Part shown: in pieces, positions 10,726 to 64,000 of the stretch | Layout: each line of letters opens with the position of its first letter | Numbering within the stretch: position 1 is the first letter of the stretch | NCBI GenBank assembly: GCA_964347945.1 | Contig: CAYGAW010000055.1 | Coordinates: 4,787-68,786, forward strand | Direction: 5' to 3' | Length of the DNA stretch: 64,000 bases | From: an uncultured Anaerolineales bacterium | Lineage (GTDB): Bacteria > Chloroflexota > Anaerolineae > UBA7937 > B3-Chlor | Made by a program: the position numbers and the translations under genes | Notes under the pieces: generated by a model | The model's database searches: none | The model's input: the letters and a program-made list of their open reading frames with translations, nothing else | What the model was told of the DNA's origin: nothing

Positions 10726-10735
10726 CGTATTCGCA

Positions 10736-43998: not shown

Positions 43999-44097
43999 CT
44001 GCCTCCTGACGGGCGCCTGGTAACGGAACCCGTTTGTCGCTCGTGAGTACAATAGGCTATAATGGTTCTTGGGCCTACTTGCCTGCCCAAGGTCATC

Positions 44098-44997: not shown

Positions 44998-45062
44998 ACC
45001 CTGTCCACACCTAGATCCGAATCCGTCTCTCTCGATCACGAGCTCATTACCCCACTATTCCC

Positions 45063-46415
45063 CTATTCTGGCATCACGAAGCTCCGCCCCAATGTCACCA
45101 CAATGTCACTGCCCTCCTTCAGGTTCGGATCCAGGATGACATACTCGGGGCCCACGCGCAGCAAGGCAGATATGAGGGCAGCCGTGCCAGCCATCTCGCG
45201 ACGACTGGCGATGAACGTTCCGTCGGACTCGATTTGAAGTCCGTCGCTCTCCGCGCGAGCAGTGTATCCGCGCCGACGCAGATAATCGGCGATTTCGATC
45301 GCTAATCCTGGACTGGATGCATCAGCACGTACGAGGATCCGAGCTTCTGCCAGTTCCGGGTCCCAAGACTCAGTGATGACAGGTGAATCCTCCAACAGGT
45401 TAGCTATCATCCCCCGAATGCGCTGCAACCTTGGCAAGAGTACCTGTGCGCCGTCAGGCGCAACGTAGGGGATCGTCAAGGATTCGTCAATCACCCTCAG
45501 CTGCACGTCCTCCAGTTCGATTCGGGTTGCCAGATTGGCCAAGGCCAGCAAATCTTGGGCGGGCAAGTCAGTCGAGAAGGCATCGCGGAACACCGGGAGC
45601 AAATCACGAAGCGAGAAGATTATGTCTAGTCTCAGAGCCTTCTCCCTCATGGCCAAGATCACCTGCTGCTGCCGACGCATCCTGGAGAAGTCACTCGTCT
45701 CGTGACGAGCCCTCACGTATTGCAAAGCGGTCTCGCCATTCATGTGCTGGCTCCCGGCCGGGATATAGATCCTCATGTATCCATAGCTGTCGTCCGGGTA
45801 GCGATCATCGCTGATGGCCTCCGGCACGTCGACCGTGATACCGCCCAAGATGTCTACGATTTGTTTGAAGCATTCGAAATTGAGTGTCCCATAGTAGTCG
45901 ATGGCAACTCCGAAGTTGTGCTCGATGGTCCGCTTCATCAACCCAGGGCCAGCCTCTTCCGTGCCTTCGAACTCTCCGTAGAAGTATGCGCTGTTTATCC
46001 TATTCTCACCGTGTCCCGGGATCTCGACCCAGAGGTCCCGGGCAATTGAAAGCAACGCGACCTCTCTCTCCACCGGGTCCACGCTGGCGATCATGATTAC
46101 ATCGGCCCTACCCGGCAACGCTGAGCCAGGGCGCTGATCAATCCCCATCACCAAGATGTTCACCCTATCGGTGCCCCGCCACATCGGCAACGGCTCGGTT
46201 GCGGGCACCACCGTCTCCACGGGCACAGATCCGGCAGGCCCGTGTTCCGTCCCCGGGGAGCGGTCTATCACTTTCACCGCCTGTCCCGCGCCGTGTGTCA
46301 GACGATAGCCCGTTTGGAAGCCTGTCACCAGAAAGGCTATGGCCAGTATGCTGCTGACAATTCGATCAACCCGGGCAAGCAAGGACGTTCGTTGCCGCGC
46401 AGGCTGTCCAATCAC
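45063..46415 (-). CDS. LytR-CpsA-Psr (LCP) family wall-glycopolymer ligase with a C-terminal LytR_C-like domain
   Basis: N-terminal TM anchor, RVNILVMGIDQRPG...RADVIMIASVDPVEREVALLSIARDLWVEIPGHGENRINSAY. Confidence 0.85.
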   Translation of the reverse strand: MIGQPARQRTSLLARVDRIVSSILAIAFLVTGFQTGYRLTHGAGQAVKVIDRSPGTEHGPAGSVPVETVVPATEPLPMWRGTDRVNILVMGIDQRPGSALPGRADVIMIASVDPVEREVALLSIARDLWVEIPGHGENRINSAYFYGEFEGTEEAGPGLMKRTIEHNFGVAIDYYGTLNFECFKQIVDILGGITVDVPEAISDDRYPDDSYGYMRIYIPAGSQHMNGETALQYVRARHETSDFSRMRRQQQVILAMREKALRLDIIFSLRDLLPVFRDAFSTDLPAQDLLALANLATRIELEDVQLRVIDESLTIPYVAPDGAQVLLPRLQRIRGMIANLLEDSPVITESWDPELAEARILVRADASSPGLAIEIADYLRRRGYTARAESDGLQIESDGTFIASRREMAGTAALISALLRVGPEYVILDPNLKEGSDIVVTLGRSFVMPE

Positions 46416-46482
46416 TGGATTTCTCCTTCAGCCTGACTCAGACTGTGCAACGGCGCGAAAGAGCGCGTCTGCGTCTCTGGGC

Positions 46483-46944
46483 CTATTTCTGGACCCCAGT
46501 GTGCCTCGCCGCCCGGGTGGCAACGACGACGACTATCAGCGCCAGGCCAAGCCCCACCGTCTCCAGCAGGCCAAGCCCTGTCTGAGGCATTCCCGGTGAG
46601 TCCGGGCTAGGGCTGCTCATGCCTGGACCATTCTGACCACCGCCGTTCTCCGGGCCTTCGACTGTCGGACTTGGAGTAGTCGAAGCCATGACCAAAGTGG
46701 GAGTCGGCGCCCGTGTAGGTGTTGCACTGGGCAGCGGCGAAGGAGTAGGAACGTCAGGCTCCTCAAGCACCGGCGTGGGCGAGGCCGCCTCAAGCGGTGG
46801 CATGGCGACCTCCGTGGGGCCAGAGATGAGCCTGAACATCACCAGTCCTCCGATGCCAAGCAGACCCAAGACAAGCGACGCCGTGAGCACGAGTGCAACC
46901 ACCATGAACAACCTGCTACTTCCCGTGTCTGTTCCCTTCTGCAT
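46483..46944 (-). CDS. Small Pro/Thr-rich surface protein with a sortase-type C-terminal sorting signal
   Basis: N-terminal TM or signal segment, a PT-rich region, then MPQTG, a hydrophobic stretch (LGLLETVGLGLALIVVVVA) and a basic tail (TRAARH). Confidence 0.5.
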   Translation of the reverse strand: MQKGTDTGSSRLFMVVALVLTASLVLGLLGIGGLVMFRLISGPTEVAMPPLEAASPTPVLEEPDVPTPSPLPSATPTRAPTPTLVMASTTPSPTVEGPENGGGQNGPGMSSPSPDSPGMPQTGLGLLETVGLGLALIVVVVATRAARHTGVQK

Positions 46945-47021
46945 TTTCCTTCTGAACCTCCTTCAAGCTATGATCACTCTCTCTTCTCTGTAACTGACAG
47001 AAGCTTGGCTTCCACCGAGCA

Positions 47022-50000
47022 CTACTGCCTTTCCACGGCGAACAGATCTTCGTACCGGCTCAGGCCCCGCAGTAGTTCCTCAACGACCTCTGGTTCCATC
47101 CAGTTCGTGACCAACCGAGTGTCAGCCTCAACATCGCCCTCGGTCCCGCCCTGAGTGCCGTTCTCACTGAACGTCAATATCACGACCTCGTGCCTCACAT
47201 CCACCTGGAACGCCTCACCCAGGAAGCGTAGCGTGTAGACGGCATCGGCCCAAACTGGGACCTCGAAGCCACCCGACCCATAGTCCGTCTTCGAGCCACT
47301 GGTGACGCTCACCGAATTGCCCCACGGGTCAACGATGTCCAGGCGTATTCCTTGGCGCGGGAAACATCCAGCTATGGCTCTGACTCCATCGCTCCGAGGT
47401 TGCCGGACCACGCTCATGCTCCACTTCGCTCCGGGCCGCCCAGGACTTGGCTGAGGCGCGGGGGGCGGAACGGGCTCAGGTGAGGGGCCCGGGGACGGAG
47501 GCGCTGGAGCGGGCGGCCGCACCGGGACGGTGATTCCTTGCCGTACGAAACGCGCCATCGCCGACACAGCATCTATGGTTTGCTGGCGCGTGCCGTTTGG
47601 GCCATCGTACCAAGCGGCTGGTTCCTCGCTTCCAGACAGAATCGAAGGGCACACAGCGAACAAGTACTCGGGCAAGCGATCACCGTGGGATAGCATTCCA
47701 TACCTGAACCACGAAAACATGGCCACATGATGGGCCTGATGCAGGAAGTCATCTACCTTGGGATAGCGACGGTCGGTGAGATCACCATACTCCCATCCTC
47801 CTGCGGCACAGATGAAGGGTGGAGCGAAACCCAGTTCATCTTCGAATACCTTCGCATACGCCAGGAATCCCAGGACACAATCATGGTCGTCATTGATGGT
47901 CTGCCCCGGGCGCTGGCCTTCGCGGCGCCAGCGGTTCACTTCCTCTATCGAGCCCGCGAACTCCCACTCGGGATGCTGAACCGGCAACGCGCGCTGGTTG
48001 ATGTCATCGTACGGATAGCGCGCCGGGCGGTTTCGGCCATAGTTGTGGCAGCAGAACCAGCTGTGCCGGAAGATGTGCTCCAGTCCTCGTCTCTTCGCTT
48101 CGCTGATGACCTTTCGCAAGTCCTCGGTCCTATTGACCTGCAGCCCGGGATAGGCATCAGCCTCGACCAGGGACTGCGCTTGCGTCAGCCAGCGTGAGGC
48201 AAACACTTCCATGTCCACGCGACCTGTCTTCCACTCCGTCGCCTTCTCTGGAGCGTTGTACACCTGTATGTAGGCCGGAATCTTCAGCTTCGATAAGATC
48301 CTCGCATCCTTTGCGAAATCATGATCCTCATCGACTAAGCATCTTGGCCGCACCACTGGCATGATGCCCCTCTCCCAGTAGGCCGGGGCCGCCTTTCGCA
48401 GTTGTGCATCCTCCTCAGTGGCCAGCACCACCCATCTCAGGTTGAGCGCCTCCACCCGCGCCAGATCTGTGGCTATGGCCTGGTCCGAGAAATCCAAGCC
48501 TGCATGGATTCCCAGGCCGTTGTCGCCAGGAGGACGCGGCCAATCGGAGTATCCCGTCCTTAGTTCGGGCCAGGTGTCTACAGGCACTCTGTCGGCGCCC
48601 ACAATCTCGACATCGGTATAGTAGTGCGTCAGGATGTCCGCGTAGGTTGCACCCTGCTCCGCCATGGCGATGGCCCCTTGTTGACACATGCCTACGCCGT
48701 GCCCATGCATGGATGGGTAGGGCTTTATGCAAGGTACGCTCCTGCAATAGGGCAAAGCCCGAACCCAAACATCTTCGCTGTTGCGGGTGTGTCCGTCACA
48801 ATGGTCGAAGTAGAAAGCTTGGATCACCTCATCGCCGTGCAGGGCCACTATGTCTGCGGTGTCCTCCACAGCTTTGTCTGTGCTAGGGTACGTATCTGCC
48901 GACCAAGCCTGGCAATGAGTGGTGGTACAGACATCGGCGCTCTGGGCGCTGTGCCTCGGATTCGCCACTGCGAATGCCGCGTAGCAACGGGTGGCCACGG
49001 CCTGGGCCTTGATCGCCTCAATTGGGGCTTCCTCGTCCATCTGTCGCGGGACCACGCCTCGAAGGTACTCTTCGAGACGCATCACCTTGACATTGCCGTC
49101 CGTCGTCAGAACCCTGATCTCCGTCGGTACATGCACGCGGAGTTGGCGCTTCACCTTCGGCAAGGTCTTCAGTCGGACAGCAGTCTGTGGCAAGCGTGGT
49201 TCGCCATTAGGCCTGTACCAACTGTGCCTCACGAAGAAGTTGTCATCCTCTGCTGCCAACAGCCAGAACGCATTGTTGAAGACGTAGTACGGAACGTCGC
49301 CGTTCATCAACATCTGGCACATCGCAGCATGCCGCTCAGCATGTAGAGCTTCGTTGATGGCAGGGGATCGAGGGTCGTCAGCATCCCCCAGCCGCACACC
49401 ATTCTCACAACAGATCATGGGCAGCCGCCGTCCGGTGTACTGGCGGACTATCTCATCGTACCATTCGAACATGTAGAAGCCTGTGTGATCCTCGCAGCCT
49501 GGAGGGCGCTGGAAAGGTTGTGCACAGCGCCAGCGTGCGCTGCCTCCCTTTCCATAGTCCAGCGGCTTGTTGAAGGCATAGTTGTGGATGCCGATAGCCA
49601 TCTTGTCGTACAGGTATTTCTTTCCACGTTGGTTCAGGATGGCCAATGCAGACTTCAAGAAGGAGGTGTCCCAGTAGTCACCGGCCGGAGCCAGAGGGGT
49701 AAACACTGGAATGATCCCGTCCACCGAGTACATTGTTTCTAGGCAAGGTATCAGGAAATCCATGAATCGAGCGGGCAGGCCTTGGGCATTCCACTCGGCC
49801 CACTCAAGCCTGAGGTTGGGTTCGTTGAACGCGTGCACATAGTGCACGCCAAGGGAGGCATAGTACTTGCAGGCCTTGCGCAACCCAGCCTGGTCGATGA
49901 AGGTCACGAATCTCGTGTAGATGCGGATAAGCGGCTCGATGTCGTGGTCAATCAGCCCGCGTAGAAACCACTCGGGGATCGGGTTCACGCCGTCGGACAG

Positions 50001-50150
50001 CACCAATAGCCAACTGGTGCCCATGGCCTTCAACTCCGGCACGAAGGTGTCGAAGTAGCGACGCTCGTAGTGCCATTGATCCGGAAACCAGTGAAACCCT
50101 ATGCCGGTGTCTCCCCTTGGTCTGGGATAGTCGAGCAAGTTCACAATCAT
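47022..50150 (-). CDS. 1042-aa multidomain protein: TIM-barrel glycosidase-like unit 1, SpoIID/LytB-like domain, TIM-barrel-like unit 2 (degenerate), Pro-rich linker, beta-sandwich module
   Basis: Unit 1 has AFNEPNL and ICCENGV. The SpoIID-like segment reads EEYLRGVVPRQMDEEAPIEAIKAQAVATRCYA...GHGVGMCQQGAIAMAEQG (about 48603-49133). Unit 2 has VYNAPEK and ICAAGGW. It is paralogous to 59511..61958. No signal peptide. The start may be GTG 50144. Confidence 0.7.
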   Translation of the reverse strand: MIVNLLDYPRPRGDTGIGFHWFPDQWHYERRYFDTFVPELKAMGTSWLLVLSDGVNPIPEWFLRGLIDHDIEPLIRIYTRFVTFIDQAGLRKACKYYASLGVHYVHAFNEPNLRLEWAEWNAQGLPARFMDFLIPCLETMYSVDGIIPVFTPLAPAGDYWDTSFLKSALAILNQRGKKYLYDKMAIGIHNYAFNKPLDYGKGGSARWRCAQPFQRPPGCEDHTGFYMFEWYDEIVRQYTGRRLPMICCENGVRLGDADDPRSPAINEALHAERHAAMCQMLMNGDVPYYVFNNAFWLLAAEDDNFFVRHSWYRPNGEPRLPQTAVRLKTLPKVKRQLRVHVPTEIRVLTTDGNVKVMRLEEYLRGVVPRQMDEEAPIEAIKAQAVATRCYAAFAVANPRHSAQSADVCTTTHCQAWSADTYPSTDKAVEDTADIVALHGDEVIQAFYFDHCDGHTRNSEDVWVRALPYCRSVPCIKPYPSMHGHGVGMCQQGAIAMAEQGATYADILTHYYTDVEIVGADRVPVDTWPELRTGYSDWPRPPGDNGLGIHAGLDFSDQAIATDLARVEALNLRWVVLATEEDAQLRKAAPAYWERGIMPVVRPRCLVDEDHDFAKDARILSKLKIPAYIQVYNAPEKATEWKTGRVDMEVFASRWLTQAQSLVEADAYPGLQVNRTEDLRKVISEAKRRGLEHIFRHSWFCCHNYGRNRPARYPYDDINQRALPVQHPEWEFAGSIEEVNRWRREGQRPGQTINDDHDCVLGFLAYAKVFEDELGFAPPFICAAGGWEYGDLTDRRYPKVDDFLHQAHHVAMFSWFRYGMLSHGDRLPEYLFAVCPSILSGSEEPAAWYDGPNGTRQQTIDAVSAMARFVRQGITVPVRPPAPAPPSPGPSPEPVPPPAPQPSPGRPGAKWSMSVVRQPRSDGVRAIAGCFPRQGIRLDIVDPWGNSVSVTSGSKTDYGSGGFEVPVWADAVYTLRFLGEAFQVDVRHEVVILTFSENGTQGGTEGDVEADTRLVTNWMEPEVVEELLRGLSRYEDLFAVERQ

Positions 50151-50725
50151 CCTCCTGTCTGGCCATGCTCGCGGTCCTCGGCGCTCTGCGGAATCAGCAA
50201 TTCCTGTCCAAGGGCCAAGATCGCCTCAGGATCCAGTTCGTTCAGAGCCGCAATCTCATCTACTGTCGTACCGTATTGCATGGCGACATCCCACAGATTG
50301 TCACCGGCGCTGATCACGTGCACACGTCGCCGTTCCGTGCGCTCTGTCTCTACCGAGACTGGCTCTCCAGCGAGGACGTCGCCAGTGGTTGCTTCCTCCA
50401 CAGCTGGGATAGCAAGCTCCTGACCCGGCTGCAAGCGATCAGGCTCCGGTAGCGAGTTCGCGTCCACCAGGGCCTGCGGCGTGACTCCGAAGCGCTGCGC
50501 GATTCCCCACACTGTGTCTCCTGCTTGTACGGTGTAGTGGGTGAGCTTCGGCCGTTCAGGGGTGCCTACCGGCGAAGCGGTCGGCGAGGGTGCGGCGAGC
50601 TCTGGCTCCGCCTCCACCGTTGGAGTTGCGGTCGCCATCGGCTTCTCCCTCGTGCAGCCGCCAATCGGAAGCGCGACCGTTATGCACAGCACAGACACCC
50701 ATTGCCATGGGATCCTGCGACCCAC
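50147..50725 (-). CDS. Lipoprotein with two LysM domains
   Basis: Lipobox IGGC. LysM domains read YTVQAGDTVWGIAQRFGVTPQALVDANSL and HVISAGDNLWDVAMQYGTTVDEIAALNEL. Its stop overlaps the next gene start as ATGA. Confidence 0.85.
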   Translation of the reverse strand: MGRRIPWQWVSVLCITVALPIGGCTREKPMATATPTVEAEPELAAPSPTASPVGTPERPKLTHYTVQAGDTVWGIAQRFGVTPQALVDANSLPEPDRLQPGQELAIPAVEEATTGDVLAGEPVSVETERTERRRVHVISAGDNLWDVAMQYGTTVDEIAALNELDPEAILALGQELLIPQSAEDREHGQTGG

Positions 50726-50744
50726 GGGATGACCTCCTCTCAGT

Positions 50745-52472: not shown

Positions 52473-52567
52473 TTCTCTACCTCCTTCTTGCGACCGTCAT
52501 GGACGACAGGGTGCTGCTGGTCCGCGATCCGTCGATCTGAACCGAACTGCCGTGTGATAAACACTCT

Positions 52568-52753
52568 CTAAAACCCTCTTCCATAGGCCATACCAATAAG
52601 CCAGCCAACGACATACGCGACCACCAGGATGACCAGCAGAAACCTCACCTGAAGCAGTCCACTGGTTATCGATGCTGTGGCTCTCCAGAAGATCAGCCGA
52701 AGCATGCCCACACCTCCAGGACCGGGCTCCTCAGAGCCTGCGGCCTGCAACAA
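52568..52753 (-). CDS. Possible small membrane protein
   Basis: The ORF starts 1 nt after the upstream stop and has a C-terminal hydrophobic helix FLLVILVVAYVVGWLIGMAYG. There is no homology evidence, and the true start could be the internal MLRLIFW. Confidence 0.25.
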   Translation of the reverse strand: MLQAAGSEEPGPGGVGMLRLIFWRATASITSGLLQVRFLLVILVVAYVVGWLIGMAYGRGF

Positions 52754-52754
52754 C

Positions 52755-54362
52755 TCACCGATATACAGTCCGTTGAAATGTCAGGACGAACCCTGTGTGG
52801 ATTGTCCAGTCAGGGTGCTCCGGAGTGCCCAATCCCATCCCCACCATGATATCGCTGGGCAACCCTTCTACATACGCGCTGTAAGAACAAAGCACGTTGA
52901 ACATCGGATACTTCACCGGATAGTCCCACGGGTAGCAGCAACTCTGGGGTTCGCTGACCACCCGGTTGCGGCCGCCGTTCTCAAAGATCACGGCCTCTCC
53001 GAACACGCGCTGCCCGGCTTCGTCCAGCAGATCCACGTGGATCTGGATGTCTTTGCGGCTCTCCTCCTCACTCAGCCATCTCGCGCTCACCAGCCGCCAG
53101 TAGCGATCGCCTGCTCGCAGCTGTATCCCTCGATCCGCCACAGTCCGCATTCCTACGCACGGCAAAGCGTTCAGCCGCGAATCCCATTCTACGGGGGGCA
53201 ACGGTGTGTTTGGCACGGCAGTCGGGGAGGTATTGCTGGTTGGCACAGGAGTGGGATTCCCTCCGGAGTACTGGAAGACGATGCTGTCGAACTGTCCGGC
53301 GGTGCCGCAGTCGGTGAACCGGATTTCCGCCGTGCCCGACTCGGGTACTGGATTAGCCTCGCTCTTCACGATGTCAATCAGAAACGTGAAAGGAGAATGG
53401 AAGTTCTCCGGAGCCAACGGCGCGAACCCCCACATACCCGGGTCCTGGCCCGCTCCGCTTATGTTGTAGACGACATGACCCGCGAAGCGTAGCCGCACGG
53501 TCCTGCCGCTCACCGGCTCGCCTCCAACACCTCTGATCTGGCCCTTGAAGTACACCGTTCCGCAGTTGGGGTATTGGCGCATGCTACCCTGCACGTACGT
53601 GAATGCGTACGCGGATGGCGTCGGCTGGCTAGGAGGCCTCGACGTCGGTGTCGCCGCCTGACGAGTAGGGACAGCTGTCCTCGTCGGCACGGGCGCTGGA
53701 TTGTCGTCTGCAGGTGACCGAGCCCCTGGTATGACCAACGATTGGCCAACGTAGATGAATGATGGATTCGCGATATTGTTCGCGAGGACAATATCCCACA
53801 TGCTGACGCCGAAACGGGTGGCAATGCCTATCAGGGTGTCCCCCCACTGAACGTGATAGGTCGTACGGGTCGTGGGCTGACTCGCTGGCTGGCTGGGCGC
53901 TGCACCCCCAGGGACCGCCAGCCTCTGCCCAACGATTATCAGGTTCGGGTTGGTTAGACCATTCAATTGCACCAGGCGCTGCACCGTCGTTCCACGCCGA
54001 GCAGCTATGGCAGACAGCGTATCTCCCCTCTGAACCACGTAGACCCCGGAGTTGGCGGGTGCGGGAGATGTGGTCCCTGGGATAGTAAGCCTCTGGCCTA
54101 CGTAGATCCAATCGGGGTTGCTGAGCTGGTTGGCCTGCGTGATCGCGGAGACGGAGGTCCCATACCGCCGCGCTATGCTGGACAAAGTATCCCCCCAGGA
54201 AACGACATAGATGGTGGGTTCAAGAGCTTCAGGTACTGCAGACATGGCTGAGGGAACACTCGCGACAAGGCCTAGCATGACCAGCGACAACAGACCAGCG
54301 ACCAGGAGCCCCCGAGCAGTGAGTGTCATTATGATACGCTTGCGTGTCCTTGCCATCGTCAA
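52755..54362 (-). CDS. Secreted protein with three LysM domains, a PT linker and C-terminal beta-sandwich modules
   Basis: Signal/TM segment, three LysM domains collinear with those of 50745..52472, and a C-terminal module YWRLVSARW...[28 protein letters not shown]...HTGFVLTF that is shared with 59511..61958. Confidence 0.8.
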
Positions 54363-54378
54363 TCCCCTGGTCTGAGCC

Positions 54379-54615
54379 CTATCTTGAGACAGCGACCTTC
54401 AAGACCCTTCCTTCTTCGTTGGTGGTCAAATGCACAATCTGCTGGAACTTCTCTCCATTGGGTGAGCTCAGGGCCTTCCGGTAGGTGAAGCGATGCCTCG
54501 CCTGTCCTCCACGATTTGTGGAGCTGACCCTCGGCTTCACACTTGCCATCTCCGGGAAGTGCTTCTCAAGATGTTTCTGCGCCCTCGTTCTACACTCTTT
54601 GGAAGGCTTAGGCAT
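54379..54615 (-). CDS. Small basic protein overlapping the ftsZ stop
   Basis: 78 aa. The ATG overlaps the ftsZ 3' end by 8 nt. The C-terminal 43 aa align without gaps to the C-terminus of 61946..64000. Confidence 0.55.
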
Positions 54616-55807: not shown

Positions 55808-55821
55808 TCGCGCTGCTCCCC

Positions 55822-58452
55822 TCAGCCTCGCTCCGATCCCACGTACCTACGGAGCACAGCCAAGAGTCCCTCCAAACGGTCAAGAAAGATGCGTAAGGCT
55901 TGCGCTGCGCCCTGGGTGACTGGCTCAGAGCCATCCGCGTCTGATCCATCGCCAATCTGTACGATGACCGGACCCACGAGGTTGTTGGCCTCGTCAACCT
56001 CAGACACGAGCCCAGCCTCTCCCTCGGGGTTGTAGGCATCCGCGTAGGCGTAGAGTTCGTGTCTGCCGGTCGGGAGACTGCCTCCGAAGTTGGTGTAGCG
56101 CCCGTCAACATCCTCCAAGGATAGGCTCAGCGATTCCTGAGCACCTAGGCTCGGCACGTACCAAAAGGCACCAACACCATCCGCCACTGCGATCGAGTTT
56201 ATGGTCGGAACGGTCGGCGGGTCCACGAAGAGCTCAACCCAGAAGCCGGTCGCTATCTCAACCCTGGCCCGGTTCCCGATCGTCACGGTGATCCCTACGC
56301 TGCCCGCATCCAGTCCCGCCTCAGGCGTCACCGTGATGCCATCTACCACCAAGTCCGGTAGATCACTTGACGGAAGGTCCGGAGTAACCGTGAGCGTAGG
56401 TGAAGCCGTGGGTAGGGGGCTGGCTCCTGGCGTAGTGCCAGGGGTTGGACGCGCCGATTCACCATAGGCCGGACTTAGCCCTTCGTTGCCTGCCCTGTCC
56501 GCTATCCTAAAACGCACGTCCGCGCCAGCCATTCCAGCCGATAGCCGACAGTAGGTGACCAATGGGTCCTCCCCCTCGGGAGCGTCGCAGGAGACAGGCT
56601 GCCAGGCGCCCCAGGTCAGACCCCCGTCGGAGGACACGGAAAACACGGCGCTCGATGGATCCAGCCCGCTTCCGTGATCAAACACTTCGACGACCACCCC
56701 GCCAGACTCGTCCATGTCCACAGAGTCCCAATCGCCTGGCGTCACCGTGTCCAGACCGATGGTGTCGGTATATGTGGCTGACGTGTTCCCCGCTTGGTCG
56801 AGGAAACGCACCCCGATAGTCTTCTCTCCGTCGCCAGAACTCAGAACCCATTCCTTGGTACTTGCGAACTCCTCCACCTCGCTGAACTGGCTGGCGCCAT
56901 CGTGGGTGAACTTCATGCCGGCTATGTCGCTCCGATCATCCTCGGCCTCAAGGCTGAGGGTGACCGTCAGCTGCGATGTGTAGGATGCGCCTTCGTCAAT
57001 CTCGACGGAGCCGGTCGGCAGCGTGTTGTCCACTATTACCTCACGCACCACACGAGAAGTGCGGCCTTGGATGCTGGTGGCCACTGCCTCGATTCGGTGT
57101 TGGCCTTCGATGAACTGGCGTGTGTTCCATGTCCATGTGAGCGACGCCGTGCTTTCCTTTTGCACCGTTCCGTCCAGGTACAGCTGTATGCGGGAAGTCG
57201 TGGGACTCGGACTGGATAAGCGGACCTCCGTCACACCAGACACGGCCTCCCCTGCCTCCGGGCTAGCTATCTCTACTCTCGGTTTGTGCGCCAGAAGCCG
57301 CTGCCACGTCTGCTGGCGTAGCTCGGGCAGTACCTTGTACACGTTGTCGCCCGGACAGATCGTGGGCCAGAGATCGCGATGCGCCACCAAATGGGGGAAC
57401 TTGCGCTGGATGAAGTACGACGATTCCAGTGGATGAATGTTGAAGCGATCAGCCTCCCACGCCATGAGGGAGATCAATGCCTCCTTCATCGCGGGGGTCA
57501 TCTTGGCATATCGGTAATCACCCAGTAGAGCGATTCCAATGCTGCCGTAGCTGTAATCGCGAGCGTGTATCCCAACCACGCCATCTCCGCCCTTGCGTCC
57601 CTCGTAGACGTTGCCTTGGCGATCGATCAAGAAGTTGTAGCCGATGTCACCCCATCCCCGTGATATGGCATGATACTGGTAGATGGCACGCACGATGTAC
57701 GCCGGATCTTCGGGGTTATTCGGCGTCACCGTGTGGTGGATAACGAAGGTAGTCGGCTGGCGATAGATCGGCTTCCGCGTCGCCCAAGCCTCGTTGGCTC
57801 CCCAGCCCCTGCGAGAGATGATGCGCGGTTGGGGCACTCCAGATGTTGCCTCCTGAGGGAGAATCATAGCCCTGGCCTCCTCGACACCGGGCCCGTCGCG
57901 CGTGTTCATGAGCGCGAATACCAGCTCCCGCACCAAGGGCGACATGCTAGCATCGAAGGTGCCCAGGATCAGCCGATACTGCAGGTACCGCGATGGAGAC
58001 ACTTCGATCAGATTGCCGTGCGTCAACTCCTCCATCTCAAGCCCGTCCTCATCTGGAGGGACCTCCGTCCAGTCAGTCCACGCCCTCCGATCACGGCTGG
58101 CACGAACCTCAAGATGAAACGTAGTCCCCGGGGGCCTGTCTGCGGCCCAAGCGGCGCCCACCATGTTGAAGACCACCGACGACTCGTGAACGGCGGAAGT
58201 GAAGCTGCCCCTTGGGCAGAACTCCGCTCCCTCCTCCTGGGACAGGCTGACCTCTCCGTCGTCCAATACGGAGAGTGCGGTGCAGTCCCGCTCTCCCAGT
58301 TCGAAGTCAGCCAAGGTGGTCTGCGTCCACTCGGCGTAAGTCCCCTCTTGCACGCTGGTTTCGCTCCTCACCAGCATCTCCTTGAACGGTACGCCCTGCA
58401 GTATGAACAGCGTAGCAGAGAGTAGAATCAAGGCGGTCAGTGTCCGTCGCAT
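55822..58452 (-). CDS. Secreted multidomain N-acetylmuramoyl-L-alanine amidase (Amidase_2/PGRP type)
   Basis: Signal peptide. The Amidase_2 core reads FVIHHTVTPN...YQYHAISRGWGDIGYNFLIDRQGNVYEGRKGG...GIALLGDY. Ig-like domains and a CARDB-like C-terminal domain (LPDLVVDGITVTPE...) follow. Confidence 0.8.
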   Translation of the reverse strand: MRRTLTALILLSATLFILQGVPFKEMLVRSETSVQEGTYAEWTQTTLADFELGERDCTALSVLDDGEVSLSQEEGAEFCPRGSFTSAVHESSVVFNMVGAAWAADRPPGTTFHLEVRASRDRRAWTDWTEVPPDEDGLEMEELTHGNLIEVSPSRYLQYRLILGTFDASMSPLVRELVFALMNTRDGPGVEEARAMILPQEATSGVPQPRIISRRGWGANEAWATRKPIYRQPTTFVIHHTVTPNNPEDPAYIVRAIYQYHAISRGWGDIGYNFLIDRQGNVYEGRKGGDGVVGIHARDYSYGSIGIALLGDYRYAKMTPAMKEALISLMAWEADRFNIHPLESSYFIQRKFPHLVAHRDLWPTICPGDNVYKVLPELRQQTWQRLLAHKPRVEIASPEAGEAVSGVTEVRLSSPSPTTSRIQLYLDGTVQKESTASLTWTWNTRQFIEGQHRIEAVATSIQGRTSRVVREVIVDNTLPTGSVEIDEGASYTSQLTVTLSLEAEDDRSDIAGMKFTHDGASQFSEVEEFASTKEWVLSSGDGEKTIGVRFLDQAGNTSATYTDTIGLDTVTPGDWDSVDMDESGGVVVEVFDHGSGLDPSSAVFSVSSDGGLTWGAWQPVSCDAPEGEDPLVTYCRLSAGMAGADVRFRIADRAGNEGLSPAYGESARPTPGTTPGASPLPTASPTLTVTPDLPSSDLPDLVVDGITVTPEAGLDAGSVGITVTIGNRARVEIATGFWVELFVDPPTVPTINSIAVADGVGAFWYVPSLGAQESLSLSLEDVDGRYTNFGGSLPTGRHELYAYADAYNPEGEAGLVSEVDEANNLVGPVIVQIGDGSDADGSEPVTQGAAQALRIFLDRLEGLLAVLRRYVGSERG

Positions 58453-58487
58453 GCTAGTCTCCTCTACGAGCCATCAACCCCTTGCGG

Positions 58488-58934
58488 CTAGATGCCATAC
58501 TCACTCAGGGCCTCTGAGAACCTCTCTGCTCGTTCCTCGATACCGGATTCCTGTCTCGCCCAACGCTGTGGATTCCAGATCTCGAGACGTGTCGCAACAC
58601 CGACGAGCACCACCTCATCGCCCAATTCTGCATAGCGCCGCAGATGGTCCGGGACCTCTATTAGTCCATCAGACTCGAGGCTACCGATCGAAGCCCCCCC
58701 GTAGACATGCCGCTGGAACATCCGAGCAGCTTCTCGCAAGAATGTGGTCCCATGGTCGATCCGGTCCGACAGTTCCTTCCACCGATCACGAGGGAAAATG
58801 GCCACGCAGTGATCCAACCCTCTGGTCATGACAAACCCCGGCTGCAGAGCCTTCCCTATCTCAGCGGGCACAACAAGACCCTCACCAGAAAGCCGTATGC
58901 CTTCGTAAGTACCCAGCAACAGATCACCTACCAC
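58488..58934 (-). CDS. mraZ: MraZ-like (SpoVT/AbrB-fold) protein
   Basis: Duplicated half-domains and the family C-terminal pattern VVLVGVATRLEIWNPQRW. Both DXXXR motifs look degenerate (LSGEGLVVP and ESDGLIEVP). Confidence 0.65.
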   Translation of the reverse strand: MVGDLLLGTYEGIRLSGEGLVVPAEIGKALQPGFVMTRGLDHCVAIFPRDRWKELSDRIDHGTTFLREAARMFQRHVYGGASIGSLESDGLIEVPDHLRRYAELGDEVVLVGVATRLEIWNPQRWARQESGIEERAERFSEALSEYGI

Positions 58935-58949
58935 GCCTCCGCCACCTCC

Positions 58950-59501
58950 CTACCGTCTGAGCCTGCCGAGGCGAGCTCTGACCAGCTCCTTCACATCGCG
59001 GAGAAGTAGATCCAGTTCGTGCTCCAATCCCTGGTACACGTCGCGGGTATCCTGCTCAGCTCGCTGGAGAAGTCGCGCTGCCTCCTGCTCCGCCGCTTCC
59101 AGCACCTCCTGGGCTCGAACCTCGGCCATCTTCGCCAGTTGGGTCTGGTCGAGAATCAGAGCCGCCTCGCGCTCCGCCCGTTGTCTAATCTCCTCAGCCT
59201 CTACCTCTGCCCTCTCCAGTACCTCGCCCTCTTCCAACAGGATTCGCTTTGCCTGCATCATCTCCGACGGCCAGGCGGCACGAATCGCCTCCAGAGTCTC
59301 CAGGCAATGCTCCTGATCGATGATCACCCTGGAGCTCAACGGGACTTTGACACCAGAGCAGATGAGGTCCTCGATCTCGTCCATGAAGAGGTTCATCTCG
59401 TAGGCAAATGGCAGGCTCGCATCGTCGAATTGGCTGCTGCGGTCGCCACTCGTGGTCTCGTACACTTCACCGTATGAAGAGCCGTCCAGTCTCATGATCA
59501 T
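58950..59501 (-). CDS. Coiled-coil protein of unknown function
   Basis: 183 aa. The N-terminal segment reads FMDEIEDLICSGVKVPLSSRVIIDQEHCLETLEAIRAAWPSEMMQAKRIL. A long Ala/Glu/Arg/Gln-rich helix follows. Confidence 0.5.
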   Translation of the reverse strand: MIMRLDGSSYGEVYETTSGDRSSQFDDASLPFAYEMNLFMDEIEDLICSGVKVPLSSRVIIDQEHCLETLEAIRAAWPSEMMQAKRILLEEGEVLERAEVEAEEIRQRAEREAALILDQTQLAKMAEVRAQEVLEAAEQEAARLLQRAEQDTRDVYQGLEHELDLLLRDVKELVRARLGRLRR

Positions 59502-59510
59502 CCTAGCCCT

Positions 59511-61958
59511 CTAGCTGGTGCCCTGAGATGCAGTGCTCGCTCTGACAAAGCCAGAGATGTCCTTCACCGACTGTATGGTCAGCACCTTGGTTGTGAAGCC
59601 ATACCAAGCTTCGTCGCTCGGGCCGCTTAGTATCCATGGGCAGGCGGCGAACAGATATTCGGGAAGCGTTTCCCCATTGGAGAGTTCGCCGTGGCGGAAC
59701 CACTCGAACATCGTCCTCGTGTATCTGGCGTGAACCATTCCATCCACGCGCGGATAGCGATGGTCATCGTATGCTCCATACAGCCACCCGCCCTCTCCGC
59801 AGATGATTGGTGGGACGAAGCCCAGGCGCCTCTCGAACACGTCGGCGAAGAACGTGTAGCCGAGAACACACCAAGGATCCTCTTGCCAGTCTGGAGGATG
59901 GTTCAGACCATAGTTGTGGGCACAGAACCAGACCCGCTCCCACACCTGAGAGTCGGGCCCCAGCGCGTGTATGGCCGCCTCCAGCTCCTCTGGCTGCAAG
60001 CACTGTAGCCCCGGATAGCCACCGGCGTTGTACACATCGATGGCCTTCTGCGCCCACAGCCCTGCCCACTTCTGGACGTAGTCCTTGGGCCTCTCGCGCC
60101 GCCATTCCCGGGGGTCCGACGGCTCGTTGAAGATCTGGAGGTAGGCCGGGATGCCATGCTCGATGAGGACACGAGCGTCCCGATCGAACGGATAGGTCCT
60201 GTTGATTTCTGTGATCTGTCTACACACCGGCATGATCCCTGCATCCCAGATCATCTTGGCGCACCTCAGGAGCTGTCCTTCGCCCTCGTAACAGAGAGTC
60301 GCCCAGGTGAGCTTCATGTCCTTGGCTCTCCTGATGTCCAGAGACATAGCCTCGTCGGTTGTATTGAGCCCAAGGTGAATCCCCATCCCGTTGTCGCCAG
60401 GCGGTCTGGGGAAATCGCTGTATTTCACCGATCGTTGTGGAGCTGGCTCAGGCGCCGGCGCTGGTGTCGGCGGCCCCAGAGGCGAGTCCTCTGCACCCGG
60501 ACCCGCTTGTACAAACGTGACCAGCACTGGATGATGCTGGATACCATTCAACTCCAGGTTGTCGCCATAAAGGCCGAACCCGCTCAGTCTCTCGCTGTTG
60601 CCTACAACCTCCACCGAGTAGCCACCCCAGCCTGCGAACATGGGCATGGAAGCTGCCTGGTGCCGAGCACCTGGCGGCGCATACGGGTCATCCTTGGGAC
60701 CGACTACATATTCACCATCAGGCCACGAGAAGCGGACGGTCTCCGCATCTACGATGGCAAAGGCACTCATGTTGCCGGTACCAGGCTGCACCTCGACACG
60801 AACAACTTTCCAGTATGGCTCGCTCTCGTTCTGGGGACCGCTGATGCGCAAGGTATCGATCATCTCTTGAGAGAGCCCAATGAACTCCACATCCCCGACT
60901 GAATCAGGCGGCGGGGTAGGAGAAACCGGGCCTGGATCCTGCCCATCAATAGAGCGAGGATGCTTGAGCATGCCCTTCACTGCAGAAGCCGCCTGGCACT
61001 CTTTCCCGTCTGGCCCGTGCCAAGCGTGAACCCTGGATGGGTGGCCTTCATCGGTAGCCAAGAGCCAGAATGTGTGGTTCACCACATACTCCGGAATCGA
61101 CCCATCCATCATCATCCCGGCAATACTCACAGCGCGATCCGCATGTCGCTTCTCGTCGGTCCACACACCATTGACTGGGGAATATGGATCTCCTACGGTC
61201 CCACTGCCCATGCATACCAGCCCCAATGAGGCTCCCACTGTAGCCTTGATGATTTCGTCGTACCACTCGAAGAGGTTGAAGCCGATGTGATCTTGGGACT
61301 CCCCAGGGCTGAAGTACGGTCTGGCTGCCGGCCAGCGTTTCCGTCCTCCCTGACCCCAAGACAGAGATTTGTCCCAGGCATGGTTGTGCATACCCACGCC
61401 CATCCTCTCAAAGAGGGACGCCTCTACCTTTGAAGTCAGAAGTTGCAGAGCTGTCTGCAGGAAGCTCAGATCCCAATAGCTCCCCGGGGGGCGCAATGCA
61501 GGGAAGACTGGATGCAAGCCAGCGGCCTGCATCTCTTCGAGACAAGGCACCAGCACGTCCACGAACCTCTGTACGAGAGAGAGCTGACACCAGTCTTGAG
61601 GGTGCCATCGCGAAGCCACATTGGCCTCACCTAATACCTCCACATAGTTGACACCCCAGCCAGCATAAGCACCGAGAAGCTCGCCTAGGCTAGACCTGTC
61701 TATGGGCTCGACCGCTGGCGTCGATACCCGTACCACGGGCTCGATCTCATTGGCTATCAGTTCCTTGACGAAGAACTCCGGGATCGGCCCACCCAGGCGG
61801 GACAGGACGACGAGCCAACTGGCACCCATACTTTTCAGTTCAGGCACCCACTGCTTGATGTCCTGCGGGCTGTAATGCTGAGTGTCCGGGAAATAGTGAA
61901 AGCCAAACCCAGTATCGTTCTGCGGCCGCGAGTATCGCTCCAATGTCATTTTGGCCAA
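59511..61958 (-). CDS. 815-aa multidomain protein: TIM-barrel-like unit 1 (degenerate), beta-sandwich module, Pro-rich linker, TIM-barrel glycosidase-like unit 2
   Basis: Paralog of 47022..50150. Unit 1 has VLGEANV and VCMGSGT. The module lies at about 60507-60896. Unit 2 has IFNEPSD and ICGEGGW. No signal peptide. Confidence 0.7.
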   Translation of the reverse strand: MAKMTLERYSRPQNDTGFGFHYFPDTQHYSPQDIKQWVPELKSMGASWLVVLSRLGGPIPEFFVKELIANEIEPVVRVSTPAVEPIDRSSLGELLGAYAGWGVNYVEVLGEANVASRWHPQDWCQLSLVQRFVDVLVPCLEEMQAAGLHPVFPALRPPGSYWDLSFLQTALQLLTSKVEASLFERMGVGMHNHAWDKSLSWGQGGRKRWPAARPYFSPGESQDHIGFNLFEWYDEIIKATVGASLGLVCMGSGTVGDPYSPVNGVWTDEKRHADRAVSIAGMMMDGSIPEYVVNHTFWLLATDEGHPSRVHAWHGPDGKECQAASAVKGMLKHPRSIDGQDPGPVSPTPPPDSVGDVEFIGLSQEMIDTLRISGPQNESEPYWKVVRVEVQPGTGNMSAFAIVDAETVRFSWPDGEYVVGPKDDPYAPPGARHQAASMPMFAGWGGYSVEVVGNSERLSGFGLYGDNLELNGIQHHPVLVTFVQAGPGAEDSPLGPPTPAPAPEPAPQRSVKYSDFPRPPGDNGMGIHLGLNTTDEAMSLDIRRAKDMKLTWATLCYEGEGQLLRCAKMIWDAGIMPVCRQITEINRTYPFDRDARVLIEHGIPAYLQIFNEPSDPREWRRERPKDYVQKWAGLWAQKAIDVYNAGGYPGLQCLQPEELEAAIHALGPDSQVWERVWFCAHNYGLNHPPDWQEDPWCVLGYTFFADVFERRLGFVPPIICGEGGWLYGAYDDHRYPRVDGMVHARYTRTMFEWFRHGELSNGETLPEYLFAACPWILSGPSDEAWYGFTTKVLTIQSVKDISGFVRASTASQGTS

Positions 61959-64000
61959 CTTCCTCTGTCCACGCGTGTCCCACCCCTTGACATCACGACC
62001 TTCATTACCTTTCCATCAGTGTTCACGGTGACCTTGACCACCTGCCGCAGCTGCTGCGCTCCTTTCGAAACGACCCTTTGCTGAGAAGTCACCATCAGCT
62101 CAGTGACACCTCCCTCCCTTTCCTTGGCACAACTGGACTTGCTCGAGGCACAATTCTCACCAGAACAGTCGACTCTACACAGGATGAGTGGATGGCCTTC
62201 AAGCCCGTTCGTGCGAAGGAAAGGCACACTGCGCTGCAGTTGTTGCTGCACATCCTTGGCAAGCGGCACTGACTCTGTTTCCTTCATCCTTGAGCAGCAG
62301 GCCAGCGGGGGGCAGGCAACCTCGAGTTGCGTCTCCAGTTCCAGCGGTTTGGAGGCCGCTTCTAGTCTCAACGAAGGGTCACCATACAGGACAAAGCTCA
62401 ACAACGCCTTCTGATCTTCCCCATCCAGGTAGCCGTGCTCTGACGCTACTGCCTGAATGAACGCTGACCTGGCTCTGCGCAACGCGCATCCGATGGGCAG
62501 CCCTGCTACGACACCCTCCCACAGATGCCTGCCAAGCAGGTCGGCACCAGAGAGTGGAGGCGCCAAAGATCCGTAGGACATTGCAGTGCTCCCAATGAAC
62601 CCCAGAGCACCATTGCCGAGGAAACTCAAGGCTATTGAACCATCGCCACACTCATTCTCAACTTGAGCGCCGTAGCATGCCTCCGAGTAGATCACGGCCC
62701 CGTCTGCATTCGCCCAAGAAACCGATAGAGGCGTAAGCGCGATGGGTAGCAAGGGCGAACCGTGCTCCGATTCACCATGACCGTACCAGTACGGACTTCC
62801 CCGGAAGCCATGAAGATTGAAGTAGCCGAGTGTGCGTATCTCCTCATACGCGCTCAGGAAGTCATAATCAGTGAAAGGGGGAGAGACTTGCAGTTTGTCG
62901 GCGTCGCCGATCACTTCGAACACCGAGCGAGATGCCTCTGCCCAAATCTCAGCCGAGTAGCCAACGCTGCTCCACGAGCCCTGTCCGCTGCGGAACAATC
63001 TCGTCACAGGATTCACCCACCGCCGAGACGCATTTCCCTTGCCCAGGCGAGCGAACGCATTGTGATGTGCGATAGCATTGTCCACCAGCTGCAATAACAT
63101 CTCCGGATTGGACGGCTGACCATCGGGAAGACGCCCTACGCTCAACCGGGAAAGCAACGAACTGCCGTCCGCAGCGGCGTACGGCCAGTCTGACAACACC
63201 TCGGCGTCTTCATCATCGGCAGGGTTAGCCAGCCTGTGGAAGGGAATCACCGAGTCGCCACCGATGATCAAGAGTGATCTGAGTTCCCTCGATTCTTGCT
63301 TCAATGCGGAACCCAGTTGTTCGACAAGTCGTGATACCTGCTGTGCATCTGACGGATCAACCCCAGTGAGCCCAAACTCATCAAGGCACGAGTCGTCATC
63401 TACATAGACCTTGATGACCTCATCTCCCGTCGACCGCGATGCGGCCTCACATAATTCTGAGAGCCTGGCATCCAGTTCACGGTGTCCGGCCTCCCCATAC
63501 CGTGAAATCAGCCTGTCGCGACTGGACAGAATGAGACGGACCGTGGTCTCCTCGCCTGCACTGTCCACGGGGGCTTCCCACATGGGCACGTCACGGGTGG
63601 ACGCCAAGTCGGCCGTCTGACCAGACCTAGCAGCCACGATGTCCCAATCCTGGCCCTTCTGGTGCCGATCTGGGCTTGACGAGAGCCAGGACCACTCCGC
63701 CGAAGTCTTCGTTGCGGCTGGTGGCTCAAGCAAAGGCTCTGCCCCGAGGAGATGCCGAAGGACTGTCGGAGCGCTGTCCATGGTCGCCGTCTCCGGACCC
63801 GGCACTTCGAGGCTTCTCACCATCACGGAATCGTACCGCTCATCCATGCCAAACAGCTCTCGTGCGACGACCCAACTGCAATCCAAGGACTGGGCGTCGT
63901 GCAGCAGAGCGACTCCCAGGGCGTCATCTCGCTGGTCCAAGGCTATGTCCGCCAGAATCAGCCTGGGCCTGATCCACGTGGGATGCTCATCGACGAGTCT
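61946..64000 (-). CDS. Gingipain/caspase-like (clan CD-type His/Cys dyad context) protein with a Cys-rich region and a C-terminal small domain; the 5' end possibly lies beyond the window
   Basis: LLIIGGDSVIPFHRL, YFNLHGFRGSPYWYGHG (His-Gly context), AVIYSEACYGAQ (Ala-Cys context), and the Cys cluster ACPPLACC...CRVDCSGENCASSKSSC. The ORF track starts at TTG 63940, but my reverse translation of 63941-64000 (RLVDEHPTWIRPRLILADIA) has no stop. The gene overlaps the next one by 13 nt. Confidence 0.55.
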   Translation of the reverse strand, partial: RLVDEHPTWIRPRLILADIALDQRDDALGVALLHDAQSLDCSWVVARELFGMDERYDSVMVRSLEVPGPETATMDSAPTVLRHLLGAEPLLEPPAATKTSAEWSWLSSSPDRHQKGQDWDIVAARSGQTADLASTRDVPMWEAPVDSAGEETTVRLILSSRDRLISRYGEAGHRELDARLSELCEAASRSTGDEVIKVYVDDDSCLDEFGLTGVDPSDAQQVSRLVEQLGSALKQESRELRSLLIIGGDSVIPFHRLANPADDEDAEVLSDWPYAAADGSSLLSRLSVGRLPDGQPSNPEMLLQLVDNAIAHHNAFARLGKGNASRRWVNPVTRLFRSGQGSWSSVGYSAEIWAEASRSVFEVIGDADKLQVSPPFTDYDFLSAYEEIRTLGYFNLHGFRGSPYWYGHGESEHGSPLLPIALTPLSVSWANADGAVIYSEACYGAQVENECGDGSIALSFLGNGALGFIGSTAMSYGSLAPPLSGADLLGRHLWEGVVAGLPIGCALRRARSAFIQAVASEHGYLDGEDQKALLSFVLYGDPSLRLEAASKPLELETQLEVACPPLACCSRMKETESVPLAKDVQQQLQRSVPFLRTNGLEGHPLILCRVDCSGENCASSKSSCAKEREGGVTELMVTSQQRVVSKGAQQLRQVVKVTVNTDGKVMKVVMSRGGTRVDRGSWPK

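Follow-up and report, generated by a model that had tools for sequence, protein, structure and literature searches.

A conserved variant of the division and cell-wall cluster in Anaerolineae, in which ftsZ is linked with a caspase-like protease and two families of uncharacterised proteins

The canonical cluster of genes for division and the cell wall (dcw) is a long, tightly packed, co-directional run of genes joining division and wall synthesis, with an MraZ-family gene upstream and ftsZ at its 3' end. In Chloroflexi the cluster is already known to be fragmented, and the ancestor of the group already had sub-clusters (PMC8871954). Once the inner dcw genes are lost, mraZ and ftsZ become neighbours, and Dehalococcoidales and Mollicutes keep mraZ-mraW-ftsA-ftsZ adjacent (PMC10608941). 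Chloroflexota are abundant, mostly uncultured and multicellular-filamentous, their envelope is debated and their cell division is essentially unstudied; according to a 2025 preprint (10.1101/2025.08.19.671072), live imaging of division had not been reported for the phylum until then. Here we describe the surroundings of ftsZ in 64,000 nucleotides from an uncultured Anaerolineales bacterium (contig CAYGAW010000055.1; the whole stretch is referred to as the window). The gene lies in an array of 14 minus-strand genes (45063-64000), a conserved and apparently new variant of the division/cell-wall cluster in which two uncharacterised families, the small protein b78 and a barrel protein, and a caspase-like protease are linked to ftsZ. 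A published description of this cluster, of b78 or of the barrel family was not found in the open-access literature. With moderate confidence, we interpret the locus as an Anaerolineae-specific division/cell-wall cluster around ftsZ, in which wall-processing genes accreted to a core of C25 protease, barrel, ftsZ and b78 genes and which would have a coupled septal role.

The argument turns on four genes of the array (positions in the window, upstream to downstream):

61946..64000, minus strand: C25-like (clan CD, caspase-fold) cysteine peptidase (PF01364, E 1.5e-14), cut by the window end, 866 aa in the contig
59511..61958, minus strand: 815-aa protein (812 aa if counted from the ATG), two TIM barrels resembling GH39/clan GH-A (AlphaFold model of the N-terminal one), no signal peptide
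54608..55807, minus strand: ftsZ, 399 aa (TIGR00065, PF00091, PF12327)
54379..54615, minus strand: b78, a 78-aa basic cytoplasmic protein of a family without a Pfam model, whose start overlaps the ftsZ stop by 8 nt

FtsZ scored 368 bits against TIGR00065 (equivalog cut-off 295), contains both the Tubulin (PF00091) and the FtsZ_C (PF12327) domain and ends in the canonical C-terminal peptide DLDVPTFLRRR, which is conserved in relatives. The same protein is also encoded on contig WWBG01001086.1 of a metagenome-assembled genome (MAG; GCA_011771555.1, 'Anaerolineae bacterium'), and its nearest relatives come from MAGs of uncultured Anaerolineales and Anaerolineae. The overlap with b78 occupies 54608-54615 and reads ATGCCTAA. 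The b78 family consists of proteins of 70-100 aa. A search of 1.84 billion proteins yielded 79 representative clusters of it, and its members number at least 209, all labelled 'hypothetical' and originating from Anaerolineae or Chloroflexi. Across 42 members no Pfam family was found at E up to 1. The model of b78 (pLDDT 91) has one helix packed on a four-stranded antiparallel sheet, and a fold search of the PDB with this model returned nothing better than E 0.037; a PepSY- or NTF2-like identity, which had been considered, is therefore unsupported. At every locus looked up individually b78 stood directly 3' of ftsZ, including five of five distant cases in which the homologue is 26-28% identical to b78 of the window. 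At loci of the Anaerolineaceae type, b78 is followed by a ~70-aa single-pass membrane protein with the motif IELxFWD (L015, 10252-10464; L016, 10228-10446; L018, L019 and L020), and this conserved protein might be a membrane tether.

The first gene of the list had been called gingipain-like from the sequence alone. Its family is indeed Peptidase_C25 (PF01364, 54 bits against a cut-off of 23), with N-terminal TPR repeats and an HG...AC dyad, but the gene extends past the window and the array continues upstream of it. The motifs YFNLHG and SEACYG are conserved in relatives, their NLHG and EACYG parts in the eight close relatives that cover the gene as well as in L022 and L017, and the Cys is lost in L021. 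The C-terminal domain of ~45 aa is homologous to b78 (hmmsearch 1e-6; 31% identity by blastp). Directly upstream (L024, 598-7413) lies the gene of a 2271-aa protein with a Walker A motif GAAGSGKT, a NACHT-like Walker B motif LFLLDG and ~50 TPRs, which is itself preceded by two further genes, one for a putative membrane protein of 103 aa and one for a response-regulator receiver. A 2320-aa counterpart of the giant protein is present in L022. At the junctions between the giant protein, C25 and barrel genes the gaps are at most 10 nt or the genes overlap. A reading of the upstream genes as a defence system was tried and rejected, as PADLOC gave generic TPR matches only; it gave no match for the C25 protein, the barrel protein, the coiled-coil protein or b78.

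For the 815-aa protein neither a Pfam match nor a PDB sequence match was obtained. Its N-terminal module was modelled by AlphaFold as a (beta/alpha)8 barrel with a pLDDT of 93, and the best folds lie in clan GH-A (PslG/GH39, GH128 and GH79 heparanase; E 7e-9, TM ~0.58), which supports the double TIM barrel proposed earlier. The C-terminal barrel keeps the motifs NEP and GEGG; the N-terminal barrel is without the nucleophile Glu. The barrel modules are paralogous to those of a 1042-aa protein further along the array (41% and 39% identity). Within the clade both catalytic Glu motifs are invariant in three barrels, namely that of a 575-aa LysM-glycosidase, the N-terminal barrel of the 1042-aa protein and the C-terminal barrel of the 815-aa protein. 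Neither the N-terminal barrel of the 815-aa protein nor the second barrel of the 1042-aa protein has them; among the four barrels that the two large proteins contain, two have intact catalytic motifs.

Gene order was compared at ten loci of related species, eight species having contigs that span most of the cluster. At all ten, every contig-covered gene of the 14 lay in the same order, together with the convergent SH3 gene beyond the array; the FtsZ proteins were 71-95% identical to that of the window and the other proteins 50-75%. In a more distant lineage (L022, FtsZ 52% identical) the cluster is compact and has different flanks, the order being 2320-aa giant, C25, barrel (NEP and TENG), CvpA, canonical MraZ, GGDEF, Amidase_2/Big_7, FtsZ, b75 and barrel-SpoIID, followed by unrelated sigma-54 genes. 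At distant loci of the Anaerolineaceae type (FtsZ 43-45% identical) only a ~440-aa barrel protein, ftsZ, b78 and the ~70-aa membrane protein are retained. In a census of the best 80 of 567 barrel-family relatives in JGI metagenomes, with FtsZ core identities to the window of 47-87%, a co-directional ftsZ was present at 53 of 80 loci. The barrel gene was directly upstream of ftsZ at 38 loci and separated from it by coiled-coil, MraZ or amidase genes at 10; a b78-like open reading frame (ORF) followed ftsZ at 28 of 35 informative loci, and a C25-like gene directly preceded the barrel gene at 33 of 42. Most of the 27 loci without ftsZ hit a contig end or show part of the cluster only, and one well-covered locus (L068) lacked it, the earlier locus L021 being similar. 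Synteny around ftsZ, which the sequence-only reading had named as a check on itself, is thus strongly conserved, with identical order in related species, a compact form in L022 and the core in metagenomic loci. From the census and the distant loci we therefore define the recurrent core as the C25 gene with its b78-like tail, the barrel gene, ftsZ and b78. The LysM, GH39, SpoIID, LCP and amidase genes are lineage-specific additions and not part of the conserved core, and the window lineage has the most expanded version of the cluster.

The ORF coordinates agree with the tight layout noted at first reading (14 to 15 reverse-strand genes) and reproduce all ten gaps, of 9, 15, 35, 14, 16, 1, 95, 19, 77 and 67 nt, as well as the 8-nt ftsZ/b78 overlap and an ATGA overlap at 50147-50150 between a 2xLysM lipoprotein gene and the 1042-aa gene. 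A 13-nt overlap claimed at 61946-61958 had to be corrected: with the ATG start of the 815-aa gene, its overlap with the C25 stop is 4 nt (ATGA). Beyond the window end the array extends for ~8.4 kb through the 2271-aa P-loop/TPR gene, the 103-aa gene and the response-regulator gene. Because these co-directional genes go on upstream at gaps of at most 10 nt, the array is at least 27 kb long. At its other end the LCP gene is the last, and a convergent SH3 gene lies beyond (44062-44997, plus strand). The GC content is even across the window (0.57-0.61); mobile or foreign DNA was ruled out from this uniformity and from the failure to find integrase or phage genes in the window. Between 47022 and 54362 the NCBI MAG record (L001/L024) differs from the window by indels that alter three genes (516 vs 535 aa; 117 + 74 vs 192 aa; 85 + 916 vs 1042 aa). 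The window has all three genes whole, as do those relatives with contigs that cover them, and the Logan assembly, which covers the 535-aa gene only, has that gene intact. We therefore attribute the indels to assembly differences and not to pseudogenes.

The other ten genes of the array are:

58950..59501, minus strand: 183-aa acidic coiled-coil protein, cytoplasmic, with a weak DivIVA match only (E 0.008)
58488..58934, minus strand: divergent MraZ-like protein with two repeats (Pfam MraZ, E 9e-18)
55822..58452, minus strand: N-acetylmuramoyl-L-alanine amidase (Amidase_2), 876 aa, exported, with Ig-like domains (PF01510; PF17957, Big_7)
52755..54362, minus strand: 535-aa exported protein, 3xLysM and a C-terminal region of ~300 aa (Pfam LysM x3, E 3e-51), signal/transmembrane (TM) segment
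52568..52753, minus strand: small single-pass membrane protein with a TM segment, conserved in L003, L005-L010 and L012
50745..52472, minus strand: 575-aa exported protein, 3xLysM and a PslG/GH39-like glycosidase (Pfam LysM x3; PDB PslG, E 5e-11)
50147..50725, minus strand: 192-aa 2xLysM lipoprotein (Pfam LysM x2; lipobox IGGC)
47022..50150, minus strand: 1042-aa protein composed of a barrel (NEP and CENG), a SpoIID/LytB domain (PF08486, TIGR02669), a second barrel (NAP, AAGG) and a C-terminal domain
46483..46944, minus strand: 153-aa surface protein rich in Pro, Ser and Thr, TM/signal segment at the N-terminus and putative sorting signal MPQTG at the C-terminus
45063..46415, minus strand: LCP-family glycopolymer-to-peptidoglycan ligase with LytR_C, membrane-anchored (PF03816, E 2e-41)

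The gene-by-gene domain assignments proposed earlier (LCP, SpoIID, LysM, FtsZ, Amidase_2, MraZ and Peptidase_C25) were all matched by Pfam or NCBIfam models. Signal or TM segments were predicted for the amidase, the three LysM proteins, the small membrane protein, the sortase-type substrate and the LCP ligase, and none for the coiled-coil protein, the MraZ-like protein, FtsZ or b78. The export signals on the amidase, the LysM proteins, the LCP protein and the putative sortase substrate fit an extracytoplasmic role. The amidase scored 63.7 bits against PF01510 (cut-off 26), has an N-terminal hydrophobic segment and conserves intact His/His/Cys Zn-ligand motifs (IHHT and HRD...CPG), as a predicted amidase. 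For the C-terminal part of the 535-aa protein no PDB sequence match was found. The glycosidase part of the 575-aa protein gave a weak Pfam GH42/14/39 signal, and its catalytic motifs NEP and EFG are invariant in relatives. The 3xLysM blocks of these two proteins are 47% identical. Of the internal paralogy claimed for the array, the relationships between barrels, between 3xLysM blocks and between the small C-terminal domains of b78 and the C25 protein hold, but a shared beta-sandwich module was not confirmed, the probability reaching no more than 13% when five candidate segments were compared profile to profile. The small membrane protein keeps its TM segment and its conservation but not its proposed length: it probably starts at Met17 (nt 52705) and has 45 rather than 61 aa. 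No homology to the ~70-aa proteins that follow b78 elsewhere was detected, despite a similar FW motif. In the SpoIID domain of the 1042-aa protein, PF08486 matched at E 3e-20 and TIGR02669 at 165 bits (cut-off 83). The tripartite sortase-type signal, with an MP(Q/E)TG motif (not LPXTG), a hydrophobic stretch and a basic tail, is kept in relatives; no sortase gene was identified in the window. The LCP protein scored 142 bits against PF03816 and 110 bits against TIGR00350 (cut-off 62), with a TM segment at residues 12-30. The position of the coiled-coil gene is kept in relatives and in the metagenomic loci L025-L033, L051 and L053.

The relation to the dcw cluster was assessed from what surrounds ftsZ. 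As had been claimed, canonical dcw genes are missing: among the 14 array genes, Pfam and NCBIfam searches detected no rsmH (Methyltransf_5), ftsL, ftsI, ftsW, ftsQ, ftsA, mraY, murG or mur genes. The MraZ-like gene is followed not by rsmH but by the Amidase_2 gene. The latter precedes ftsZ and eight genes follow ftsZ, which is therefore not terminal as in dcw. The MraZ-like protein scored 70 bits against TIGR00242, under the equivalog threshold of 98; its orthologue in L022 (12002-12424) is canonical and keeps both DxxGR motifs. The ftsA-like gene reported at 1-876 was recovered as an FtsA-like fragment (TIGR01174, 76 bits vs 27 for PilM) ~54 kb from ftsZ. The sole SEDS/bPBP pair of the window is found at 10736-13919, beside mreBCD and 35-50 kb from the array. 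Plausibly, mraZ and ftsZ are the remaining ends of the ancestral dcw cluster, the synthesis genes of which were relocated; the published sub-clusters of the Chloroflexi ancestor (PMC8871954) and the mraZ-mraW-ftsA-ftsZ remnants left after loss of the inner genes (PMC10608941) support this.

Elsewhere in the window ordinary chromosomal genes are found (alaS, rplY, gltX, mreBCD, PBP2, RodA, prfB, ftsY, clpXP, tig, tRNAs and 6S RNA). At 4498-13919 (plus strand) mreB-mreC-mreD is split from PBP2 and RodA by the gene of a TMEM260-like membrane protein of 1069 aa (protein O-mannosyltransferase-type), which is an unusual gene to find inserted into an elongasome operon. The stretch 15941-18931 (plus strand) encodes a Ser/Thr kinase with a fused PQQ-type beta-propeller and, next to it, a PP2C phosphatase. 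At 24837-30053 (minus strand) three tandem PTPS_related/PMT_2-type membrane glycosyltransferase-like paralogues (582, 604 and 524 aa) lie beside a GT2 gene. The 6S RNA gene (32710-32876, minus strand; Rfam RF00013, 70 bits) is flanked by alcohol-dehydrogenase genes on one side and a FemAB-like GNAT gene on the other. Immediately past the convergent SH3-domain gene at the end of the array, 41524-44175 (minus strand) encodes a protein of 883 aa with a single, central TM segment, which neither Pfam nor NCBIfam models matched.

In the mechanism that we propose for the cluster, the tightly packed and partly overlapping genes would be co-transcribed and in places translationally coupled, so that the Z-ring protein would be made together with the wall enzymes. 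The exported set of Zn-motif amidase, three LysM proteins, PslG-like GH39 domain, LCP protein and putative sortase substrate fits septal wall or secondary-polymer processing. Judging from the domain functions, these enzymes would remove stem peptides, cleave wall-linked polysaccharide and reattach glycopolymer where a multicellular filament forms its new septum, in a host cell pictured as filamentous and monoderm-like. On the cytoplasmic side, b78 and the barrel protein, which has no signal peptide and is often catalytically dead, may be FtsZ-associated factors, as their strict gene linkage suggests. In the window lineage, Amidase_2, three LysM proteins (one fused to the PslG-like domain), the barrel-SpoIID-barrel protein, the putatively sortase-anchored protein and the LCP ligase would have accreted around ftsZ. 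The earlier hypothesis of a dedicated FtsZ-linked system for remodelling septal peptidoglycan or a secondary polymer is retained in part: synteny and the exported products are in line with it, but its wall-hydrolase/LysM/LCP part is accretion, not core.

A number of observations weigh against a coupled septal role. Neither the 815-aa nor the 1042-aa protein has a predicted signal peptide or TM segment, and none was predicted in the 664 aa of the C25 protein within the window, so that the link of all three to the wall is uncertain. At the best-80 metagenomic loci the nucleophile Glu is absent from 36 of the 38 barrels that abut ftsZ; barrels set apart from ftsZ by other genes mostly keep both Glu residues. 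In the SpoIID domain the residue aligned to E101 of C. difficile SpoIID (5txu numbering), which we take to be the catalytic Glu (E88 in B. subtilis), is Gln in the window (residues ~365-372). It is Gln also in L003, Glu in L005, L007, L008 and L012, Ala in L006, L009 and L010, and Gly in L022, a variation which suggests that some lineages have lost, or can do without, lytic-transglycosylase activity. In E. coli MraZ, Arg15 is required for DNA binding. Alignment with the E. coli and B. subtilis proteins showed that Leu replaces Arg in each of the two DxxxR motifs of the MraZ-like protein of the window and of 10 relatives (11 of 11), which suggests that DNA binding was lost or changed in this clade. 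A search for MraZ boxes (E. coli-type GTGGK or TGGG repeats with 10-nt spacing) gave nothing above chance in the window or in L022. A scan of 44500-64000 for sigma-70 promoters and intrinsic terminators found fewer sites than in shuffled sequence and is therefore uninformative on transcription units. Finally, the C25-barrel pair occurs without ftsZ in L021 and L068, and the SH3 gene outside the array is as conserved among close relatives as the array itself, so that part of the synteny among them may reflect inheritance and not selection.

These points were weighed together with the alternatives. The conserved SH3 gene is what an inherited neighbourhood would leave, in which ftsZ landed among wall-hydrolase genes after the dcw cluster fragmented, the order was kept by descent without functional coupling and several transcription units persist. 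The gaps of 67-95 nt could hold internal promoters, and lineages further away do not have the LysM, GH39 and LCP block. We nevertheless consider this explanation quite unlikely: the core genes stay adjacent down to FtsZ identities of 43-52%, where the flanks are wholly different, all of the accreted genes relate to the wall and are not a random set, and the junctions ftsZ/b78, C25/barrel and LysM192/barrel overlap, which indicates coupling. The loci with a C25-barrel pair and no ftsZ speak for two juxtaposed modules, of which one, comprising the response regulator, the 103-aa protein, the 2271-aa P-loop/TPR protein, the TPR-C25 protein and possibly the barrel, would be a signalling or cell-death/conflict module (STAND-like NTPase with a caspase-like effector) that is common beside ftsZ and independent of division. 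Such NTPase and caspase-like architectures are typical of multicellular bacteria, and both the Walker motifs and ~50 TPRs of the giant protein and the caspase-type His/Cys dyad retained in the C25 protein would suit them. This explanation is unlikely in our view, because the C25 gene lies directly upstream of barrel-ftsZ in most informative loci over FtsZ identities of 47-87%, its C-terminus is homologous to the ftsZ-coupled b78, the PADLOC match is limited to TPR repeats and the giant/C25/barrel genes are closely spaced or overlapping.

SpoIID and SpoIIP form an engulfment hydrolase pair, and the amidase and SpoIID-type domain of the array recall it. With an FtsA-like gene ~54 kb away, they could be taken as signs of a specialised second division system, in which the ftsZ of the window would be a paralogue for filament fragmentation or a sporulation- or engulfment-like event and a housekeeping ftsZ would reside in a canonical dcw cluster elsewhere. 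This is very improbable given that FtsZ is well above the equivalog cut-off with a normal C-terminal peptide, that the SpoIID catalytic residue is not conserved and that the same ftsZ context recurs in hundreds of metagenomic contigs; each related genome also gave one FtsZ locus in a pattern scan, which is blind to divergent paralogues. The Anaerolineae-specific cluster with a recurrent core and accreted wall-processing genes therefore remains our preferred reading. A more far-reaching form of it, which we put forward as speculative and rather doubtful, would make b78, the pseudo-glycosidase barrel and the C25 protease, all strictly linked and without signal peptide, partners that bind FtsZ directly in the cytoplasm, the protease having a C-terminus that duplicates half of b78. 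Together they would constitute an Anaerolineae-specific Z-ring anchoring or regulatory module, placed in this lineage under the giant P-loop/TPR sensor and the response regulator. It would choose between septum formation and breakage of the filament, for instance through regulated proteolysis of FtsZ or its tether, and would replace the factors of the FtsA, ZipA or SepF type that other bacteria encode beside ftsZ.

The cluster offers conserved candidates for the coupling of the Z-ring to septal wall processing outside the model phyla. The linkage of b78 and of the barrel family, both without a Pfam model, to ftsZ is as tight as that of classical division genes, and a caspase-like protease is tied to it as well. 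Among described systems, Pseudomonas aeruginosa PslG, an exopolysaccharide endoglycosidase of family GH39, ranked first by sequence for the LysM-glycosidase domain (E 5e-11) and first by fold for the barrel family, and three barrels here carry the NEP and nucleophile Glu motifs. The barrel family differs from it in an identity of only 10-12%, in the loss of the nucleophile from most ftsZ-adjacent members and in having no signal peptide. SpoIID cleaves glycan strands that have already been denuded by an amidase. The SpoIID-SpoIIP(-SpoIIM) system of endospore formers resembles the array in that an amidase and a SpoIID/LytB-domain protein are encoded together. Here, however, the amidase is Amidase_2 and not SpoIIP, and the SpoIID domain lies between two GH-A-like barrels, without signal or TM segment and with Gln at the position of the catalytic Glu.

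With LysM-targeted septal separation systems (AmiA/B/C with NlpD/EnvC/ActS, DipM, LytE/F, AcmA) the array shares an exported amidase and several LysM proteins. The NCBIfam similarity to ActS, DipM, NlpD and MltD stems from the LysM repeats alone and is far below the family cut-offs, and no LytM/M23 or NlpC/P60 domain was detected in the array proteins; such separation systems are moreover not normally encoded beside ftsZ. The sepF, ylmG, divIVA and zapA-type genes proximal to ftsZ in Actinobacteria and Firmicutes offer the parallel of a small cytoplasmic protein encoded tightly downstream of ftsZ and of a coiled-coil protein in the cluster. In contrast to SepF, ZapA and DivIVA, b78 shows no sequence or fold similarity to them (no Pfam match, no PDB fold below E 0.03), and the DivIVA match of the coiled-coil protein is sub-threshold.

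Within the same phylum, the collapsed mraZ-mraW-ftsA-ftsZ clusters of Dehalococcoidales and SAR202, found also in Mollicutes, likewise have dcw border genes that stay close, but those organisms are without peptidoglycan and keep mraW and ftsA (PMC10608941). Here mraW and ftsA are missing from the cluster, new genes are inserted and peptidoglycan-related genes are abundant, with LysM and amidase genes in the array and mreBCD-PBP2-RodA in the window. The closest likeness in overall plan is to the canonical dcw cluster, which is equally long, tightly packed and co-directional, joins division and wall, and has an MraZ-family gene upstream of ftsZ. It differs in that rsmH, ftsL/I/W/Q/A and all mur and mraY genes are absent from the array, the MraZ protein is without its DxxxR arginines and under the equivalog cut-off, and ftsZ stands mid-cluster instead of at the 3' end. 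With hydrolases and binding proteins in place of the synthases, the Anaerolineae locus shows how a dcw cluster can be rebuilt, its synthesis genes moving out, hydrolases and binding proteins moving in and MraZ degenerating.

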